Of a stretch of DNA of 64,000 nucleotides, positions 9,622-48,831 are shown piece after piece. The stretch covers positions 1 through 64,000 of IMG/VR virus record IMGVR_UViG_3300005758_000037. One strand, 5' to 3'. The stretch comes from a virus. The notes beneath the pieces were generated by a model. It saw only the letters and a list, made by a program, of their open reading frames with translations, had not been told where the DNA came from and did not search any database. Numbering within the stretch: position 1 is the first letter of the stretch; each line of letters opens with the position of its first letter. Made by a program: the position numbers and the translations under genes.

Positions 9622-11616
9622 ATGGCAAATAAGATCGTCTTAAAAAAATCATCTGTAGCTGCTAAAGTTCCAGTTGCTGGAGATTTAGATTTTGGTGAAT
9701 TAGCGATTAATTACACAGATGGTAAATTATATTTTAAGAAAGCAGATAATACAATTGATGCTTTTACAACAGCCGCTGCTTCTGCTCCGGTTACTTCTGT
9801 TGGTGGTAATATCGGTGATATTACAGATGCTCAACTTTTGGCATCTATCAAAAATGTAGATGGTACAGGTAGTGGTCTTGATGCTGATACACTAGATGGT
9901 AATCATGCTTCTGCTTTTTATCTTGCAAGCAATCCAAATGGTTATACAAGTAATACAGGTACAGTAACATCTGTTGGTGCTACTGCTCCTTTGGTATCTT
10001 CTGGTGGTACTGCTCCTTCTATTTCTATTCCTGCTGCTAATTCAACAACCAATGGTTATATGTCAAGTGCTTATGCAAGTAAACTTGATGGTATTGCTGC
10101 TGGTGCTACTGCAAATACAGGTACGGTTACTTCTGTTTCGGGTACTGGTGGTTATGGGGGTTTGACTTTAAGTGGTACTATAACTTCCTCTGGTAGCTTG
10201 ACTTTAGGTGGTACACCAACGGGTACATGGCCTATTAGTATAACCGGCAGTGCTGCTACAGTTGGTACTATAGGAACAACGCAGGTAACTACATTATACA
10301 GTCCAAATGGAGCTACTGTTGTCAATCCCGATACTGCTTCTGCAATGCCAGCACAAGGACAATCATTTATTCATACTCTAGGTACTGGACCTAGTGCGAA
10401 TGATGGTCATATTCTAGGTATGTCATGGGCAAATACAACTAGTGTTTATGGTGCTCAGATTTGGCTTGATACTGATCCAACTAACAGAATGGCAATTCGT
10501 TCACGCAGTAGTGCCGGTGTATGGAATGGATGGAGTGAAGTTTTAACTTCTAATAATTATACATCATACTCACCATCACTAACTGGTTCCGGTGCATCTG
10601 GTACTTGGGGCATTAATATCACTGGTAATGCAGCGACTGCTAGTAATTCATCTCAATTGAACGGACTATCATCTATCCAATTATTTAATAATATGGGTGG
10701 TGTCCACGGAACTCAAACAGATTTCAATGCGATTTCTGATTTCGGTGTTAGATATGTTCAAGGAACAACAAATGGTCCGGGTACAGGTTCGCAATATTAT
10801 GGTTTTACTCTTGGATTAGGTAATGATTACGCATACTCATCATATGCATCACAACTTTACTGGCCTCGCACACCTTTGTCTGGTTCACCTTATTTAAGTG
10901 TAAGATTTAGAGAAGGTGGTAGTTGGGGTAGTTGGTCTAAAATTTATGCAGGATATGCTGACTCTGCTGGTTCCGTAGCTTGGACAAACGTTTCTGGTAG
11001 ACCAACTGCTGTATCAAGTTTTACTAATGATAGTGGTTATTTAACTAGTTCAACAGGTGTAACTACAACCAACAACACCAGTTTAAACAGTGATACCCGA
11101 AATACTCGTGGTGTAACTCGCCTATATCGTCGTGATGATAATAGTGATTATTCTGTTCAAACTTATTGGACAGGTTCTCATTGGATGTTATATGGTTATG
11201 TTGGTGATAGTAATCACGCTGGTTGTCGTGTTGCGTATGCAGATTCCGCTGGTAATGGTGGTGTAACCTCTGTTAATGGAGCCACTGGTGCAGTTACTAT
11301 TAGTGCATTGACAGATGGTGGTGCGTCTTTTAGTGGATCAAGTGGCTATCAAAAACTATCAAATGGTTGGATTATTCAATGGGGATTATATGATAGAGGT
11401 GGTTGGACCGGTAACATGTATGAAAACGGTGAAAACATTTCTTTCCCTATAACATTCCCAAATGCATGTAGATCAATTACAACGTCACCGTATACCGGTG
11501 GAAATAACAACACAACATGGAGTTCTGAACCAAAAGTATATAGTTATACTAATAGTTCTTGGAAAAGAACAGGTGATGGTCACAGGTGGATTTTTTGGAT
11601 AGCGATTGGACATTAA
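9622..11616 (+). CDS. tail-fibre-like protein 2 with receptor-binding-type C-terminal tip
   Basis: ATG at 9622 preceded by AAGGA. N-terminal IVLKKSSVAAKVPVAGDLDFGELAINYTDGKLYFK fibre motif. Repeated GTVTSV / ITGNAATA units. The C-terminus (GYQKLSNGWIIQWG...FPITFPNAC...WIAIGH) is paralogous to the end of 29735..30841. Confidence 0.8.
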   Translation: MANKIVLKKSSVAAKVPVAGDLDFGELAINYTDGKLYFKKADNTIDAFTTAAASAPVTSVGGNIGDITDAQLLASIKNVDGTGSGLDADTLDGNHASAFYLASNPNGYTSNTGTVTSVGATAPLVSSGGTAPSISIPAANSTTNGYMSSAYASKLDGIAAGATANTGTVTSVSGTGGYGGLTLSGTITSSGSLTLGGTPTGTWPISITGSAATVGTIGTTQVTTLYSPNGATVVNPDTASAMPAQGQSFIHTLGTGPSANDGHILGMSWANTTSVYGAQIWLDTDPTNRMAIRSRSSAGVWNGWSEVLTSNNYTSYSPSLTGSGASGTWGINITGNAATASNSSQLNGLSSIQLFNNMGGVHGTQTDFNAISDFGVRYVQGTTNGPGTGSQYYGFTLGLGNDYAYSSYASQLYWPRTPLSGSPYLSVRFREGGSWGSWSKIYAGYADSAGSVAWTNVSGRPTAVSSFTNDSGYLTSSTGVTTTNNTSLNSDTRNTRGVTRLYRRDDNSDYSVQTYWTGSHWMLYGYVGDSNHAGCRVAYADSAGNGGVTSVNGATGAVTISALTDGGASFSGSSGYQKLSNGWIIQWGLYDRGGWTGNMYENGENISFPITFPNACRSITTSPYTGGNNNTTWSSEPKVYSYTNSSWKRTGDGHRWIFWIAIGH

Positions 11617-12056: not shown

Positions 12057-12085
12057 TACATTTATACGTTTATTATGAGGTGAGT

Positions 12086-12865
12086 ATGGAACAAGTAAAT
12101 AAAGCTAAAAGTTTCACTCCCACGCAAGCTATGCGAAATAACGCAAAAAGAGGACTTGCATTAAGAGAAAAGTGGAATAGAGGCGGTTTAAGTGCTTCTC
12201 AAGCTAAATCAGAAGGTGTAGGTTCCGGTGTTGCAAGAGCTAGAGATATCGCAAATGGTAATCTTACGCTCGACACTGTAAAGAGAATGCATGCGTTTTT
12301 CAGTAGGCACGAAAAGAACTTTAATCCTTCAAAGAAGGAATCTGATGGTGGTCCAACCGCAGGTACTATTGCTTGGTATCTTTGGGGTGGTTCAGCAGGT
12401 AAAGCTTGGGCTAGAAGTATTCTTAGACAAGAGAAATTATTAAAAGCTGTTGATGCTGAATTAAATCTAAATATTGAAGATTTAAAAGATAAGCTATCTG
12501 TTAGTAAAGCAGTTAACGAAGAATTAAAACAGGCTACATTCGTAGTAATGGTCCCAGACGAGATTGATGCTCATGGTGATATTACTACAGAAGAAGAGAT
12601 TCGTAAAGCTTGTTATAACTTCAACAAGCACTCAATGAAGGCTAATCTCTTTCATTTAGTAGAAACAAAAACATTTGAATTTTGCGAAAGCTATTGTTGT
12701 CCTACAGACTTCATCCTTGGTGATAAGTTAGTTAAAAAGGGAACTTGGTTAGCAACCATTCAAGCACTAGATGATGGTCTATGGGCATTGATTAAATCTG
12801 GTGATATTAACGGTCTTAGTATTGGTGCTTTAGCATCAGTAGAAAACATTGAAGAGGATGAATAA
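12086..12865 (+). CDS. prohead protease (XkdF-like C-terminal domain) with conserved N-terminal domain
   Basis: GAGG RBS. The C-terminal half (DAHGDITTEEEIRKACYNF...KGTWLATIQALDDGLWALIKSGDINGLSIGA) resembles XkdF-type phage serine peptidases. Precedes the scaffold and capsid genes. Confidence 0.65.
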   Translation: MEQVNKAKSFTPTQAMRNNAKRGLALREKWNRGGLSASQAKSEGVGSGVARARDIANGNLTLDTVKRMHAFFSRHEKNFNPSKKESDGGPTAGTIAWYLWGGSAGKAWARSILRQEKLLKAVDAELNLNIEDLKDKLSVSKAVNEELKQATFVVMVPDEIDAHGDITTEEEIRKACYNFNKHSMKANLFHLVETKTFEFCESYCCPTDFILGDKLVKKGTWLATIQALDDGLWALIKSGDINGLSIGALASVENIEEDE

Positions 12866-43965: not shown

Positions 43966-44463
43966 TCAGGGTTTATATGCTGAAAATACCTTGCAGGTAA
44001 TTTCTGTTGGTTTAACAAAAGACCAGTTGCTATATTCATTACCATTATAAGATGAGTAATGACAATTAATACGAATATAACCTTTTACGTCAGTTCCTTC
44101 ATATACAGCAAATACTGTATAAACAGGATATTCGCTTAGATCATATGAATCTACAAGACTATTCGTTTGACCTTGATTATACAGGTCATTGTCAAACGTA
44201 GAAGAATCATATGAAACTCTTAGATTTACGTCAGCTAGAGCAGTATTGATCTTGTCTTCGAAATCATTTTCTGGTTTGTGACCAATGAAACCAACAGCAA
44301 TATCATTTGAATTATATTTTACATACTCATTGAATGCAGTCTTAAAACGTTCATGCCATGATAGAGAATTACGAAGTTGTTTAATCTTATCTTGTGCTTC
44401 TTTTTGAATCTTAGCGATCTGTTCTTCAACAGTCAATTCAGTCGTGGATTTAGTTCGTGCCAT
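43966..44463 (-). CDS. hypothetical protein, paralogue of 43607..43960
   Basis: ATG at 44463 with an AAAGGAA RBS. Shares the C-terminal G/C.Y.SYNG.EY..W.FV.P motif. Confidence 0.65.
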   Translation of the reverse strand: MARTKSTTELTVEEQIAKIQKEAQDKIKQLRNSLSWHERFKTAFNEYVKYNSNDIAVGFIGHKPENDFEDKINTALADVNLRVSYDSSTFDNDLYNQGQTNSLVDSYDLSEYPVYTVFAVYEGTDVKGYIRINCHYSSYNGNEYSNWSFVKPTEITCKVFSAYKP

Positions 44464-45262
44464 TTTCAAGTTCCTTTCTAATGTTCTCAAACCTCATTGT
44501 ATCACACAAATCGAATACCTGAGGATAATAATCAATTGCCCAATCTCTGAACCAACCGCTACATAATGTAGTACATACTTTATCTAGTGCTTTGATGTAT
44601 GCATGTCGTACTGGATATTGCCAGTCTCTAGGTACAAGAAAACGCTCGATAGCAATGACTTGTGTTTCTTCAGCTACGCATTTGATTTTATCGTCTGTTG
44701 ACAGCTTATCCCACAAATCTTTGTCACACCATGCGCTACTTGGATCACGCTGAAGTTGAGTATACAACGGTTTGTCGTGATATGCAACAAGTTCGTGCAA
44801 ATAATCATGATTATATTTCTTAGTCACATAATCATCAAAGAAATCGTCAACTGACTTTTTCAAACTAGGGTGACCTTGTGGAAATTCTTTCATTGTCATT
44901 TCAATGCGTTGCTGCAAAAATCCTTTATCTGCAACAGACAGGTTGATACACTTGTATTTTTCAGGAATGTATTTGTGATAGTGCGTGATGTGTTTCTGAA
45001 AGCTCAGATTACGCCACAAATGACTACGTTTGATAATTGACAAACCACGCAAATTCATTACGTTTAGTTCATGACCATTGAAGTTTACTTTATGATGTGA
45101 ACCATAATAAAATGCAAGTTTAGCATTATTCAGAAATTTAGGATCGTGCCATTCAGAACCTTCGATTGGTTCATCACTGATGATATCCCAATCAGTAGTA
45201 TCCTTGATTTTTAATTCAGGATTCCAATATGCTAATGCTCGTGAACCAATCAAAACTTTCAT
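44450..45262 (-). CDS. hypothetical protein with possible minimal nucleotidyltransferase motif
   Basis: ATG at 45262 with an AAGGAAAG RBS; the longer ORF-track start runs into a tRNA-like gene. The N-terminal MKVLIGSRALAYWNPELKIKDTTDWDIISD resembles hG[GS]-x(n)-D-x-D of Pol-beta-type NTases. Lies immediately 3' of the tRNA island. Confidence 0.6.
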   Translation of the reverse strand: MKVLIGSRALAYWNPELKIKDTTDWDIISDEPIEGSEWHDPKFLNNAKLAFYYGSHHKVNFNGHELNVMNLRGLSIIKRSHLWRNLSFQKHITHYHKYIPEKYKCINLSVADKGFLQQRIEMTMKEFPQGHPSLKKSVDDFFDDYVTKKYNHDYLHELVAYHDKPLYTQLQRDPSSAWCDKDLWDKLSTDDKIKCVAEETQVIAIERFLVPRDWQYPVRHAYIKALDKVCTTLCSGWFRDWAIDYYPQVFDLCDTMRFENIRKELENGTN

Positions 45263-45275
45263 GACTTTCCTTATT

Positions 45276-45358
45276 TGGTGTGTATTACGGGATTCGAACC
45301 CGCATCTCAAGGTCATTAGCCCTGCGTCATGATGCCCTAACATTTAGACCAAATACAC
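45276..45358 (-). tRNA. non-canonical tRNA-like gene 1 (isotype unresolved; possible AAT anticodon)
   Basis: Sense strand has a perfect 7-bp acceptor GTGTATT/AATACAC, T-arm GCGGG-TTCGAAT-CCCGT and A + CCA. The D/anticodon region is about 6-7 nt too long. Candidate arm: CAGGG-CTAATGA-CCTTG. Confidence 0.5.
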
Positions 45359-45391
45359 GTTGTTCAATATACTGAAGTGTACCACTGAAAT

Positions 45392-45465
45392 TGGTGGATA
45401 GTAGCGGAGTCGAACCGCTGACAAGGTTATTCACCTCCTGTTAGCCATTTACACAGTCACTACCC
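45392..45465 (-). tRNA. non-canonical tRNA-like gene 2 (G3-U70 acceptor, AGGAGGTGA in place of anticodon arm)
   Basis: Sense strand GGGTAGT-GA-CTGT-GTAAATGGCTA-ACAG-GAGGTGAATAACCTTGTC-AGCGG-TTCGACT-CCGCT-ACTATCC-A-CCA. The acceptor, D and T arms are canonical. The anticodon arm is reduced to a 3-4 bp stem, or a 5-bp stem with an 11-nt loop. Confidence 0.5.
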
Positions 45466-45906
45466 AATATACTTCAAGATACTACCACGGCATTTTCTGC
45501 TGTGTTTCAAGCAACATTACCATGTCTACCCATTGTGCATGTAGTATCTTGAAGTATATCACCAGTCCCTAAACTGGATCAATACTGTCTTGTTACATCC
45601 GGGCGACGACCCTTTGGCCTTTGAACTCCGCAGTGTACCACGCCATCAGCACATCTGTTTTTCCAATCCATTCCGCTACGCAGTTTGGGTTTGACGGGGC
45701 TTACACCCGCCTCGCTTGAAGTGTGCCGCTAACTCTAGGGATGTGAGCAACAGGCATAAGCGGGATTACTTATAGGTGCTGGTTACGTTCTCCAGCTTGA
45801 TATTTCGTCATCAACGTAGCAAATACGCTATTCTAAGTACCTTTCGGTTGCCAGCTACGGCTCTTAGTGAAGAATAGCATCACCGTTCCCATCCCGAATG
45901 GGTTCT
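45466..45906 (-). ncRNA. candidate structured stable RNA(s) embedded in tRNA island
   Basis: No ORF of 60 aa or more in any frame between 45344 and 46071. Visibly more G+C-rich than its surroundings. Multiple helices, including ACC-GAAA-GGT (GNRA loop), an 8-bp stem GCTATTCT/AGAATAGC and a 19-bp perfect inverted repeat. Flanked by tRNA genes on the same strand. Confidence 0.4.
45467..45559. repeat. 19-bp perfect inverted repeat with 55-nt spacer
   Basis: atatacttcaagatactac (45467-45485) and gtagtatcttgaagtatat (45541-45559). Confidence 0.9.
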
Positions 45907-45981
45907 TGGTGCGACTAGATGGAATCGAACCACCATTCAGTGCTTAGAAGGCACTTGCATTCTCCGTTATACTATAGTCGC
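45907..45981 (-). tRNA. tRNA-Arg (anticodon TCT)
   Basis: Sense strand GCGACTA-TA-GTAT-AACGGAGA-ATGC-A-AGTGC-CTTCTAA-GCACT-GAAT-GGTGG-TTCGATT-CCATC-TAGTCGC-A-CCA. Confidence 0.85.
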
Positions 45982-45988
45982 AATATTC

Positions 45989-46066
45989 TGGTACGAGAGG
46001 ACGGATTCGAACCGACACTTTAATGATTTTAAGTCATTTGCCTACTACCTATTGGGCTACTCTCGC
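45989..46066 (-). tRNA. tRNA with TAA anticodon (Leu codons UUA/UUG) but short variable arm
   Basis: Sense strand GCGAGAG-TA-GCC-CAATAGGTAGTA-GGC-A-AATGA-CTTAAAA-TCATT-AAAGT-GTCGG-TTCGAAT-CCGTC-CTCTCGT-A-CCA. Class I shape with one T-T mismatch in the T stem. Confidence 0.7.
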
Positions 46067-46076
46067 AATACTTGGA

Positions 46077-46247
46077 TTATACCTCAGAATCTTCTTTCTT
46101 GTCAACCTCTCTCAAAATATTTTCTTTGATGTTTAGTCGAGCAATTAAATTCAGATCACTCTTTGGCATGCTCATGCTAGAACGTAGTATACCATGTTCA
46201 TCCCATTGTTGCAAAGTTTTATATTCATCGTTGTATTTATACAACAT
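46077..46247 (-). CDS. hypothetical protein (56 aa)
   Basis: ATG at 46247, two nt after the upstream stop. Last ORF before the tRNA island. Confidence 0.5.
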   Translation of the reverse strand: MLYKYNDEYKTLQQWDEHGILRSSMSMPKSDLNLIARLNIKENILREVDKKEDSEV

Positions 46248-46248
46248 A

Positions 46249-46452
46249 TTAGAATTCCTTTTCGCATTGATAATTCCAACCACCTACATCCCAAGTGTTA
46301 AATGTAGATTTTGAAATCTTTATCACATGTCCGGGTAATACCTTGGATGTACCAGAAAACCACTCTTCCTCAAAAGCACAAGACATGGAAGCTAACCAAT
46401 GTTCATGTTCCAATTCGTAGAACCACCAAGGTAATGCATTGTTCCAACTCAC
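46249..46452 (-). CDS. hypothetical protein (67 aa, Trp-rich)
   Basis: Tightly packed ORF whose start overlaps the upstream stop. Confidence 0.55.
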   Translation of the reverse strand: MSWNNALPWWFYELEHEHWLASMSCAFEEEWFSGTSKVLPGHVIKISKSTFNTWDVGGWNYQCEKEF

Positions 46453-46649
46453 TATGCTATCCTTTCAATTATATGAAAATCAGTTTCCACAAATTGACCA
46501 ACTTCAAGTTTTAAAACATGATCCCTGAAAAACCATGATGTGTCCATTGTAGAGTTTGGAATTTGATTTTTACAAGTTAACCAATCTGGTGCATCTTCTT
46601 CAGAAAACATAATTACTTTATCAAGAAAATGCGTTGCCTTAAATATCAT
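46452..46649 (-). CDS. hypothetical protein (65 aa)
   Basis: ATG at 46649 just after the polymerase stop, preceded by GGGGG. Confidence 0.55.
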   Translation of the reverse strand: MIFKATHFLDKVIMFSEEDAPDWLTCKNQIPNSTMDTSWFFRDHVLKLEVGQFVETDFHIIERIA

Positions 46650-46650
46650 A

Positions 46651-48831
46651 TTAACCCCCAATTACAAGCTTTTCCGCTTCCTGCACATAGTAATCAAAGT
46701 CGATATCACCATCAAAGTCTTTCATATTGTTACATGTCTTGACATTCCAAGCAGTATCGATGCCCAAACGACGATCACCATCATCTTCCTTACCTTCCAG
46801 TGCTGGCATCAACTTAATAAGTTTACCACCATTTTTAGAAGGATAGTAGCGACAGATATTTTGCTGTGGTACAACTCGACCATCTTCGTATTCTAACACT
46901 AGCGAAGAACTACGAGGTACTTTTGTGCGTAGCATGAAATCAAAGATGTTTCCGGCACTGAAGTGATTTTCAACGAATTGACGGATATCAGCACCATGTA
47001 GCATTACAGCTTCAGCAGCCATTGGAATGACCAATGCAGATTGATTTTGATGCCATCCTAGACCTTCGTATTGGTATGCGCCCTTGCGTTTTGTCTTACC
47101 GTTAGTGTATACAGCAATGTAGTTGTTAACATCACGAATGATCATCTTTGAATAGTCTACAAATTCAAGTTCAAGACCTACATCTTTTTGCCACTGAGTA
47201 CAAATTTCTTTGTACTGCTCTTCGGTTTCACGAAGCATAGCAACGGTCAAACCATCAGTGTTCAACTGAATAAGCTTTAGACCGTCAATCTGCAATAGAC
47301 GATCAGCAAGCATCAGCAGTGATAACTGACCGTTGATTGTAATCGACATAGTGAACTTTGGATCATAGAACACAGAGTACTTGTCGTTGGACTTACCATA
47401 CGTACCGTTCAGTGCAAGCTTGAGCATAGCATTCTCAGCAGTGCCTTTTGCATAAGACTTGCGCTGTTCATACATGTCTTTGTAAATCACACAGAAATCT
47501 TTACTCAAATGCTCAGGATAAATCTCATTTGAGATCGCAATGTTCGGATACATAGAACTTACGTCAGCATCACGAATCATATACTTAGATGTTTCTTTTG
47601 CAATACGTTCAGACAGTGAAGCATGAACACCACCTACACCGAAATCGATGCGATAACCGTCTACAACAACGTTTAGAGTCTCAGCCACACGGTAACATCC
47701 CCAATACGATTTCTTGGGCACACGGACCTTTTTAGGCTTCTTTGTGAGGTCTGGTAGACCATCAGCATCAAGAGGGTATTCGGTCACATGGTTACCTTGT
47801 GCATCAAACAGGTATTCAGTAGCCTTTAGCTCTTCTTCTTCAATCCAACCCATAGGGTGTTCACGCTTGAATTCTGAAAGCTCTTTATCGTCTGGTTTAC
47901 TCTTGAACTTCTTGCGCTTGACAGTCATTTCTGCGTACTTTGCAACATCACCTAGTTCATGCTCTTCAAGCTCAGAAAATACACCTTTGGTTTCGGTGAT
48001 TACCTGACGAGAAAACCAATCATAGACGGCCTGAAATTCTGGACGATCAAACCTGTAGTACTTGAACAGGCAGTCAGCAATAGCGATTTTGGTGCGCTTG
48101 GTTTGGTTCAGAACTTTCTTACCGTCCTTGAATACATGCAGTTTTACACCCGCTTCATCTAGTTTCATCTGGAAGTACTCAGCACCGATCTTTGTATCGT
48201 CTGCATTCAATACAACATTACCCATTGTCTCTGACATTTTGAATCGGAAGTCAACTTGTTCCTGAGATTTCAGCAGGAATTGTCGAGTTGCTTCTACGTC
48301 ATGCTCGTTGTAAGCTACAATCTTTGCAATGTCTTCTTCTGACAGTTCAGCATTGATATCGAATGGTAGGTCTTCGATGTTATCAAGACGCATGTTGAAT
48401 TCCAGCATTTTAAGGCTGGTTGACTTTGCTTTGTTGTTGAAGTGATGGATACGATAGAGGTCCAACTGCTTTATGAACTGCTCTTCAGAACGGACGGTGT
48501 TACCGAAACCGTTATCTTTGAAAGAGTCAATCTGTTCTTGTGCCCATGCAAACACTTTGTGTGCAATACCTAGACCTGTCTTTGGTAGACGATCACGCTG
48601 TAGGATGAACTTATGAACAATTGGGTAGTCGAATCCAATGTTGTTAAAACCAACAAGGAAATGCTCGTTTTCAGCAATGTAGTCAACGCATTTTAGGATA
48701 CCTTGATAATCATTCTGGAACTTAGAACATACAAAGGTTTTCTTGAACTTACCATCAGCACGAACAACACTGAAGGTGAAAGCTTCTTTGTATGTCTCAA
48801 TGTCATATACCCATAGCTTTGTCAATTCCAT
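46651..48831 (-). CDS. DNA polymerase, family B, with 3'-5' exonuclease domain
   Basis: Exo I VYDIET, Exo II GFNNIGFDYPIV, Exo III AYNEHDVEAT. Pol motif A DADVSSMYPNIAI, motif B KLALNGTYGKSN, motif C LNTDGLTV. Confidence 0.88.
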   Translation of the reverse strand: MELTKLWVYDIETYKEAFTFSVVRADGKFKKTFVCSKFQNDYQGILKCVDYIAENEHFLVGFNNIGFDYPIVHKFILQRDRLPKTGLGIAHKVFAWAQEQIDSFKDNGFGNTVRSEEQFIKQLDLYRIHHFNNKAKSTSLKMLEFNMRLDNIEDLPFDINAELSEEDIAKIVAYNEHDVEATRQFLLKSQEQVDFRFKMSETMGNVVLNADDTKIGAEYFQMKLDEAGVKLHVFKDGKKVLNQTKRTKIAIADCLFKYYRFDRPEFQAVYDWFSRQVITETKGVFSELEEHELGDVAKYAEMTVKRKKFKSKPDDKELSEFKREHPMGWIEEEELKATEYLFDAQGNHVTEYPLDADGLPDLTKKPKKVRVPKKSYWGCYRVAETLNVVVDGYRIDFGVGGVHASLSERIAKETSKYMIRDADVSSMYPNIAISNEIYPEHLSKDFCVIYKDMYEQRKSYAKGTAENAMLKLALNGTYGKSNDKYSVFYDPKFTMSITINGQLSLLMLADRLLQIDGLKLIQLNTDGLTVAMLRETEEQYKEICTQWQKDVGLELEFVDYSKMIIRDVNNYIAVYTNGKTKRKGAYQYEGLGWHQNQSALVIPMAAEAVMLHGADIRQFVENHFSAGNIFDFMLRTKVPRSSSLVLEYEDGRVVPQQNICRYYPSKNGGKLIKLMPALEGKEDDGDRRLGIDTAWNVKTCNNMKDFDGDIDFDYYVQEAEKLVIGG

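Follow-up and report, generated by a model that had tools for sequence, protein, structure and literature searches.

A structured RNA family of phage tRNA islands with a four-way-junction core and a long 3' hairpin whose 5' strand has two covarying partners

Among the described systems closest to the one reported here, the ROOL and GOLLD RNAs are phage-encoded, often lie near tRNA islands, and adopt elaborate folds with pseudoknots and kissing loops, and they have no known protein partner or function (PMC12286853). GOLLD is often longer than 800 nt, and a contact in ROOL that was first read as intramolecular proved to be quaternary (PMC12286853). A 2023 survey of IMG/VR reported 8,495 unnamed DNAVirus_N motifs of 29-151 nt (mean 67), many of which are tRNA-like or unexplained (PMC10690425). 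In the annotation of phage T4, rnaD (species 2) and rnaC (species 1) come immediately after tRNA-Arg in the tRNA cluster, on its strand and in DNA without an open reading frame (ORF). Here we describe an interval at positions 45466-45906 of a 64,000-nucleotide stretch of viral DNA (positions 1 to 64,000 of IMG/VR record IMGVR_UViG_3300005758_000037; hereafter, the window). The interval is composite, with three parts on the minus strand: a group of hairpins at 45778-45902, a conserved 207-nt core at 45561-45767, and a long perfect hairpin, P8, at 45467-45559. It is very nearly certain that the core represents a real structured RNA family read from the minus strand. On balance, we favor the view that the interval is a noncoding RNA locus in a phage tRNA operon and that the core and P8 make up a stand-alone RNA, freed from the tRNA transcripts and acting in trans.

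The family resembles ROOL and GOLLD in being phage-encoded and in residing in tRNA islands, with 20-30 tRNAs per locus. It differs from them in that no Rfam match to either was found in the window (at the gathering score), in 45200-46120 (at E<=10), or in 12 family loci, and in that its core, at about 180-250 nt plus P8, is several times smaller. By comparison, ROOL measures about 580 nt. While ROOL and GOLLD also occur in prophages, a stricter sequence pattern for the family had 0 matches in 185,579 bacterial and archaeal genomes (one per species). ROOL is a homo-oligomeric cage held together by intermolecular kissing loops; the family has two complementary invariant loops, which may pair in cis or in trans. 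The window resembles T4 in that the RNA locus follows tRNA-Arg(UCU) on the same strand, and the parallel with T4 that an earlier note on this DNA had drawn is apt as to position. Combined sizes are comparable as well (119 + 139 nt for the two T4 RNAs, and about 300 nt for the family core with P8). However, T4 has two RNAs where there is one here, and T4 rnaC ends in a T-arm-like hairpin as opposed to the long perfect hairpin of the family RNA. Homology to rnaC and rnaD was rejected, given that the best match of the family covariance model (R1, below) to the T4 tRNA region, with filters off, scored 2.4 bits (E ~1). The DNAVirus_N motifs derive from the same type of data, intergenic regions of IMG/VR, but are shorter than the family RNA, a comparison made by their description only. 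We place the RNA, as a new family, in the loose grouping of stable structured RNAs from phage tRNA islands; it is a member of no described family.

Searches of Rfam 15 that covered the whole window identified only tRNAs at the gathering score, and when 45200-46120 was searched at E<=10, the matches besides tRNA were chance-level matches to unrelated families. Within 45466-45906, no match at E<=10 was found to the models of tRNA, tmRNA, RNase P RNA, or group I and group II introns, and ARAGORN made no call. The same Rfam search at E<=10 gave no match to known self-cleaving ribozyme classes or to riboswitch families. The earlier note had seen no sign of a tmRNA, RNase P RNA, or group I intron and had suggested an undescribed RNA, which agrees with these results. 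The interval had also been described as free of ORFs and enriched in G+C, and this too was confirmed: the longest ORF in any frame within 45344-46071 is 37 aa, and the G+C fraction is 0.475-0.54 over 45500-45899 compared with 0.31-0.39 in the coding flanks. A 297-aa ORF ending at 45343 is an artifact in which a gene that truly starts at 45262 is extended upstream across a tRNA.

The window comes from a phage related to Limnohabitans phage DC31 and Curvibacter phage P26059A, whose DNA polymerases share 75% and 70% identity, respectively, with the one encoded in the window. A search of 45380-45910 against 50,697 GenBank phages using blastn in distant mode produced no match. Relatives were reached by aligning by hand the syntenic gap of DC31, which lies upstream of the same downstream gene and aligns with the window in blocks, and then by pattern scans. 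Three such scans of IMG/VR contigs supplied loci, and the covariance model R1 was built on 43 sequences. R1 has a single match in the window, at 45561-45767 on the minus strand (164.6 bits, E ~6e-36), and 76 matches in viral-contig loci. It also matches 70 of the 73 metagenome loci that were selected by the stricter sequence pattern. In total, the family comprises 99 distinct sequences (100 members aligned) from viral and metagenome contigs. When the DC31 copy and one divergent member were searched with blastn against the 50,697 GenBank phage records, DC31 was the sole match; it is the one cultured phage with the family, and the element, which falls in the region 44960-45270 of its GenBank record PQ492658, is unannotated there. 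In the available text of the DC31 genome paper, the term 'non-coding' is absent and no such RNA is mentioned. R1 found no family copy in Curvibacter phage P26059A. One locus (L070; L numbers denote loci) has a second, partial, weak R1 match of 26.8 bits at 10408-10533 on the plus strand, cut by the contig end and located downstream of the full copy at a distance of about 730 nt. As far as this partial sequence goes, there may be phages with two family copies.

The core and its elements, other than segment X and the two complementary loops, are as follows:
45561-45767, minus strand: conserved core, consisting of the P1-P5 four-way junction and a 3' domain of P6, segment X, and P7, as defined by the R1 match and covariation
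45763-45767, minus strand: 5' strand of P1 (AAUCC), which closes the four-way junction by pairing with 45625-45629 (GGAGU)
45693-45711, minus strand: P4, hairpin GGCGGG / UGUAAGC / CCCGUC with a GNRA-type loop; 99.7% of cells paired, 6 of 6 pairs covary
45663-45692, minus strand: P4a, an optional hairpin inserted in the A-rich P4-P5 junction, present in the window and some members only
45631-45657, minus strand: P5, hairpin with loop GAUGGCGU; changes on both sides in 8 of 8 pairs
45601-45612, minus strand: P6, hairpin GGGU-CGUC-GCCC; 99% of cells paired, with A-U, G-C, or C-G as the third pair
45562-45577, minus strand: P7, hairpin CCAG-UUUAGGGA-CUGG; 99.7% of cells paired, 4 of 4 pairs covary

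Covariation supports seven helices, with P1-P5 forming the four-way junction and P6 and P7 following as 3' hairpins. Pairs were counted on the covariance-model alignment of the 100 members, 99 of them distinct. Standard pairs occupy 91.8% of cells, compared with 31-43% in slid controls, for which the 3' partners were moved 1-3 columns. Changes on both sides occur in 40 of the 48 pairs, and the covariation score is 0.453, compared with 0.06-0.085 in the slid controls. The number of shuffles reaching the observed values was 0 of 500. A MAFFT-only alignment supports P4, P6, and P7, and P1 and P2 in part, and RNAalifold re-derives P1-P7 from the model-fitted alignment. P1 has the family form AGUCC/GGAUU, and in the divergent members L105, L070, and L099 the whole helix is replaced by GAGU/GCUC. 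P1 is followed by P2 and then by P2b-P3, whose loop reads A-N-A-UCCCUA. The P4 loop takes the form U-GNRA-GC, with the variants GUAA, GAAA, GCAA, GAGA, and GGAA, and P6 has the family form GGA-YGUC-UCC, with an invariant GUC in its loop. Twenty-three columns are invariant, and they are mostly unpaired. Conserved G-U pairs are found in 77 of 99 sequences at columns 2/190 and in 79 of 99 at columns 68/105, positions at which the opposite strand would have A-C mismatches. This strand specificity indicates that the functional molecule is RNA from the minus strand of the window, like the tRNAs. The earlier note had proposed a structured noncoding RNA on the tRNA strand and had named conservation and covariation among relatives as a check; compensatory changes in about 100 distinct relatives, distributed over seven helices, bear this proposal out.

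Several other pairings were considered. RNAalifold, applied to the 43-sequence MAFFT alignment, pairs the 5' GUCCC with the GGGAC of P7; this was rejected because P1 covariation joins the 5' bases to GGAUU and because the pairing is broken in four members that have AGGCC. RNAalifold also pairs the GUC of the P6 loop with the GAC of segment X. Since both are invariant, this pairing is neither supported nor contradicted, and it was kept out of the model. Pairing of the P5 loop (UGGYG) with tRNA 3' ends in the style of a T-box fits DC31 but, by inspection, neither the window nor L009, and the P5 loop is not conserved across subgroups; this idea was set aside. All of the hairpins that the earlier note had listed are present in the window, and relatives support two of them, P7 and the hairpin termed a3 below. 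They do not support the helix ATAAG-taatcccg-CTTAT, the bases of which belong to P1 and P2 and the ATAAG of which is not conserved.

The comparative results also bear on three alternatives: that the interval acts at the DNA level, as a replication origin, packaging site, or attachment site; that it is the decayed remnant of a tRNA, tmRNA, RNase P RNA, or intron; or that it is a spacer that folds by chance. The interval adjoins tRNA genes, around which integration sites and decaying genes are frequently found, and this would suit such explanations, as would the abundance of aberrant tRNA-like genes in family loci. Moreover, single-sequence folding exceeds that of shuffled sequences only modestly, with z = -1.99 for the minus strand and -3.0 for the plus strand, so the sequence by itself is no proof of structure and the evidence is comparative. 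That evidence, namely compensatory changes in seven helices and strand-specific G-U pairs, contradicts a DNA-level or decayed element. Furthermore, the family spans phages with different neighboring genes, it was absent from the cellular genomes searched, and neither Rfam at E<=10 nor ARAGORN recognized a tRNA, tmRNA, RNase P RNA, or intron. We therefore regard explanations of this type as very improbable.

Two loops of the core are complementary to one another:
45736-45741, minus strand: UCCCUA in the P3 loop, the 5' partner, near-invariant among the 99 distinct members
45566-45571, minus strand: UAGGGA in the P7 loop, the 3' partner, nearly invariant

These loops are complementary in 99 of 99 distinct sequences (100% of cells). 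Seventeen cells vary, sixteen of them from U-A to U-G and one from C-G to U-G, and a wobble pair is kept in all 17. There is no true covariation between the loops because both are almost invariant. Their complementarity makes a contact likely, either within one molecule as a pseudoknot or between molecules as a kissing interaction. TAGGGR sites, as potential targets of UCCCUA, are not enriched in the flanks, where 30 sense and 23 antisense sites were counted compared with about 70 expected for a uniform base composition. If the contact formed between molecules, the RNA could be self-assembling in the manner of ROOL and GOLLD, giving dimers, rings, or cages. The two invariant 6-nt loops could kiss in trans, and the family shares the setting of ROOL and GOLLD: it is phage-encoded, located in tRNA islands, ornate, and without a universal protein partner within 5 kb. 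On the other hand, the family RNA is much smaller than either of these RNAs and matches neither of their Rfam models, and intramolecular and intermolecular pairing are indistinguishable from the present evidence. Self-assembly is thus, in our estimation, a rather improbable explanation of the family.

The 3' part of the RNA contains two further elements:
45467-45559, minus strand: P8, a perfect 19-bp hairpin enclosing 55 nt (arms 45541-45559 and 45467-45485), the obligatory 3' element
45582-45591, minus strand: segment X, AAGACAGUAU, with an invariant AAGAC and the family form AAGACA-n-UAU

P8 is the sole perfect inverted repeat of at least 19 bp in the window. A 14-24-bp hairpin with no more than one mismatch, starting 0-3 nt after P7, is found in 80 of the 80 distinct variants that have enough flanking sequence. 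Across variants, these hairpins span 38-156 nt, and the 20-120 nt that they enclose are variable and sometimes structured. The 5' strand of P8, which we call Y, starts y-A-U-A-n'-U and is complementary to segment X (A-n-U-A-U-r). Six contiguous positions of the X:Y helix are paired in 77-82 of 82 variants, and two of them covary: at n the pairs are A-U (46), C-G (20), G-C (12), and G-U (3), and at r they are G-C (43), A-U (30), and G-U (4). One position beyond the helix, pairing is seen in 19 of 82 variants on the 5' side and in 44 of 81 on the 3' side. In the window, the X:Y helix has 5 bp, formed by AGUAU at 45582-45586 with 45553-45557 in the 5' strand of P8. The X:Y helix and the Y:Z helix, where Z is the 3' strand of P8, are mutually exclusive, and both covary. 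Since bases of Y pair with both X and Z, these two segments compete for Y, and selection keeps both pairings. A functional strand exchange between X and P8 is, in our judgment, reasonably probable.

In the DC31-like lineage (L001 4935-5055 and many other loci), the sequence enclosed by P8 is itself conserved, with the form caggttgggtaaacgaacgtggtttactatttggg ... ctaagatacgg and a variable insert; this sequence could constitute a second structured domain. Two long hairpins stand in tandem in some loci (L015 and L029).

P8 resembles the RNase III stems of the rRNA operon and of T7 early mRNA, in that it is a near-perfect duplex of about two turns located at the boundary of two RNA products. It differs from them in enclosing 20-120 nt of variable sequence, and its cleavage is a prediction. 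To our knowledge, a cis-acting competitor strand such as X has not been described for RNase III processing stems.

The sequence that follows P8 differs among family members. Among 77 variants, an ORF with a Shine-Dalgarno (SD) sequence lies within 40 nt in 20, a tRNA or tRNA-like gene follows in 15, and a terminator-like site follows in 3 (for example, L098 6999-7018). The remaining 39 have other contexts, which include fresh TTGACA/TATAAT promoters and further hairpin modules. This variety indicates that the RNA and P8 behave as a self-contained unit and not the leader of one gene, and no universal protein partner was found within 5 kb in the family loci.

These observations have to be set against the possibility of a cis-acting leader similar to a riboswitch or T-box, with the core acting as a sensor of a ligand, tRNA, or protein and the X/P8 switch as the expression platform, governing how the downstream nucleotidyltransferase-like gene is translated or the downstream tRNA is processed. 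The family has the same general layout, in which a compact, conserved, sensor-like core is followed by two mutually exclusive covarying helices, the latter being a hallmark of expression platforms. Its many invariant unpaired nucleotides and its loop-loop contact are aptamer-like. In 38 of 88 loci, P8 is directly followed by a gene for a protein with DUF7277 and DUF7275 domains, the SD sequence of which lies 1-2 nt past the hairpin. In the window, a tRNA-like gene begins 2 nt after P8, and the 5' leader of this gene would be released if the base of P8 were to open. However, the family is not found upstream of one gene class, as noted for the contexts after P8, where an SD sequence with an ORF occurs in just 20 of the 77 variants. 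P8 does not cover the SD sequence and has no terminator U tract, and there is consequently no obvious on/off logic. In addition, a 163-kb phage encodes a DUF7275 homologue (52% identity) upstream of which the RNA is missing; the existence of this homologue led us to reject DUF7275 as an obligatory partner of the RNA and indicates that the adjacency of gene and RNA is synteny within one lineage. A cis-acting leader is accordingly unlikely, and we are fairly confident in describing the family as a stand-alone RNA as opposed to a leader for one gene.

The 5' end of the core, AGUCCCG, lies 5-8 nt after the CCA end of a tRNA or about as far past a -10-like box. In the DC31-like lineage, the tRNA ahead of the core is Arg-UCU; outside that lineage, it is Leu, Tyr, Ser, Val, or Ala. 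A fixed 5' boundary, 5-8 nt after tRNA 3' ends, might be expected of a new class of RNA, self-cleaving or catalytic in some other way, that cuts the tRNA transcript at its own 5' edge or at P8. The 23 invariant and mostly unpaired columns and the compact fold, with its GNRA-type loop and loop-loop contact, are compatible with catalysis, and several small ribozyme classes are common in phage metagenomes. Nevertheless, no known ribozyme family was matched at E<=10, and many members start right after a -10-like box, where 5' cleavage would be needless. At about 180 nt plus P8, the RNA also exceeds most self-cleaving classes in size, and no cleavage site is identifiable from its sequence. We therefore find a ribozyme of this kind quite unlikely.

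The window contains the following features around the core and P8, in minus-strand order:
46076-46105, minus strand: sigma-70-type promoter-like site, TTGACA-18 nt-TATAAT, with 12 of 12 consensus positions, directly upstream of tRNA-Leu
45989-46066, minus strand: tRNA-Leu(UAA), found by ARAGORN and Rfam (61 bits)
45907-45981, minus strand: tRNA-Arg(UCU), found by ARAGORN and Rfam; the same tRNA precedes the RNA in many relatives
45888-45902, minus strand: hairpin a1, CCCAU-UCGGG-AUGGG, directly after the CCA end of tRNA-Arg
45827-45878, minus strand: module a2, in which a helix of GCUAUUCU and AGAAUAGC surrounds CUAAG/CUUAG and two small hairpins, one with a GAAA loop
45778-45814, minus strand: twin-hairpin motif, consisting of a3 (UUGAU-GACGAAAU-AUCAA) and a4 (GCUGG-AGAACGUAA-CCAGC), separate from the family core
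45392-45465, minus strand: tRNA-like gene, starting 2 nt after P8, part of the context and outside the RNA family
45279-45358, minus strand: an odd tRNA (Rfam, 51 bits; not called by ARAGORN), part of the context
44450-45262, minus strand: downstream gene with DUF7277 and DUF7275, which directly follows P8 in the DC31-like lineage

All of the RNA genes that flank 45466-45906 are on the minus strand, in keeping with the earlier note's description of an interval sandwiched by co-oriented tRNA genes. The site at 46076-46105, judged by its match to the consensus, is probably the start of the tRNA and noncoding RNA transcript. There is no minus-strand terminator-like site in 44300-46700. Given a consensus promoter and no terminator-like site down to 44300, the tRNAs, the interval, and the next gene are plausibly part of one transcript.

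The earlier note had treated the whole interval of about 440 nt as a single unit. This did not hold, since the conserved family consists of 45561-45767 and P8 only, and the 5' ~130 nt are separate modules. As a full set, a1-a4 occur in a few close relatives (L009, L155, and L184), and most family members are without them. Hairpin a1 recurs after tRNA-Arg in L009, L170, and L052, and a2 is specific to its lineage, being found in L009, L155, and L184 only. The stems of a3 and a4 covary, with UUGGU/ACCAA and GCUAG/CUAGC in L009 and GUAGC/GCUAC and GCAGG/CCUGC in L106; thus a4 (GCUGG/CCAGC), which had not been among the hairpins listed earlier, also has a compensatory change in close relatives. 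The twin motif, present in L009, L155, and L184 and at ~2330-2370 in L106, occurs independently of the RNA family, with the loops rACGAwAU and AGAACGUAA conserved, and a single a4-like hairpin is located 3 nt upstream of tRNA-Arg in Curvibacter phage P26059A (L002 10534-10552). The twin-hairpin motif may serve as a signal for protein binding or processing.

In other relatives, the stretch between tRNA-Arg and the core is occupied by aberrant tRNA-like genes, other hairpin modules, or a promoter, and it looks like a hot spot for exchangeable RNA modules. Several tRNA-like genes lie between tRNA-Arg and the core in L015, L038, L061, L067, L097, L112, L119, L190, and L191. They have insertions of 30-50 nt in or after the anticodon region and a CCA end, and they are not called by ARAGORN.

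Both tRNA-like genes downstream of P8 are aberrant. The gene at 45392-45465 scores only 19.8 bits against the tRNA-Sec model (E=0.44), and it was missed by ARAGORN and the Rfam tRNA model. Its acceptor, D, and T arms are normal; its anticodon region is 4 nt short, with a 3-bp stem and the loop UGAAUAA. The homologue of this gene in L043 reads as tRNA-Val(AAC). The tRNA at 45279-45358 has a 13-nt insertion in the D loop and the anticodon loop CUAAUGA. Its anticodon would be AAU, which is unusual for bacteria, and L114 holds a homologue with the same D-loop insertion.

The protein encoded at 44450-45262 belongs to a family with more than 600 metagenome homologues, in which G6-S7...D24-x-D26 is invariant and fits the signature of Pol-beta nucleotidyltransferases. 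AlphaFold predicted its structure with a pLDDT of 91.5 when given the alignment, compared with 38 for the single sequence. The best structural matches in the PDB are nucleotidyltransferase-fold proteins, including the toxin MenT1, and these matches are weak (E 0.2-0.3, TM 0.27-0.37). Sequence searches of the PDB with the DUF7275 protein gave a best E of 0.33 for the single sequence and no match for the profile. Going by the predicted structure and the signature, the product is probably a Pol-beta-fold nucleotidyltransferase, and such a gene suits the tRNA-related neighborhood.

In the 12 family loci examined, no Rfam family matched beyond tRNA and tmRNA. The tmRNAs, at 12073-12412 on the plus strand of L108 (116 bits) and 2373-2769 on the minus strand of L059 (96 bits), are of the permuted, two-piece betaproteobacterial type, which hints at betaproteobacterial hosts. 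In Curvibacter phage P26059A (KY981271), about 800 nt at L002 10630-11457 carry no annotated gene and contain tRNA-like pieces and long hairpins, each followed by GGTATAAT. ARAGORN calls a 99-nt tRNA-Pyl(CUA) there, a possible suppressor tRNA.

We propose the following scheme for the stand-alone RNA. On the minus strand, the order of elements is the promoter-like site, tRNA-Leu, tRNA-Arg, the lineage-specific hairpins, the core with P8, the two aberrant tRNA-like genes, and the nucleotidyltransferase-like gene. The RNA would be cotranscribed with the tRNAs or, in other phages, transcribed from a promoter of its own, so that its 5' end would be set through trimming of a tRNA trailer or through transcription initiation. 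The nucleases that trim tRNA precursors would free it. P8, as a perfect duplex of two turns at the border with the next RNA, would be a natural site for RNase III, although processing of P8 by this enzyme is a tentative element of the scheme. Once the 3' strand of P8 (Z) was cut away or displaced, X would capture the 5' strand (Y), which would seal the 3' end of the RNA and free the 5' leader of whichever tRNA or mRNA comes next. The mature RNA would then act in trans as a compact fold, like other stable RNAs of phage tRNA islands.

Several considerations weigh against this proposal. The pair counts rest on a model-fitted alignment, which leans towards structure. X may also covary with P8 because it has to resemble the 3' strand of P8 for some other reason, and the loop-loop pairing, which lacks covariation, is consistent with a contact but does not demonstrate one, be it intramolecular or intermolecular. 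In the lineage in which the DUF7277/DUF7275 gene directly follows P8 (38 of 88 loci), the element could have a cis role. A discrete stable transcript, its ends, and a cut by RNase III are predictions. Finally, anatomy alone implies no function. A further reading, possible though rather doubtful, is that the family represents a new functional class: a four-way-junction RNA with a loop-loop lock and a 3' strand-exchange switch that would control its own release or sense a signal such as tRNA status. Such an RNA might be a ribozyme, or it might regulate translation or host defense in trans during infection of freshwater Betaproteobacteria.

Given that the element is unannotated in GenBank and has no model in Rfam 15, a covariance model for the family would improve the annotation of phage genomes. 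At about 180 nt plus a hairpin, the RNA is small enough for chemical probing, mutagenesis, and structure determination, and some 100 variants define its helices. The covarying competition between X and the 3' hairpin offers a mechanistic handle that is not known for other classes. The RNAs of phage tRNA islands, including T4 species 1 and 2, GOLLD, and ROOL, have gone unexplained for decades; this family adds a third, unrelated fold, and its presence in DC31, a cultured, plaque-forming phage, makes the question of what tRNA-island RNAs do directly testable.

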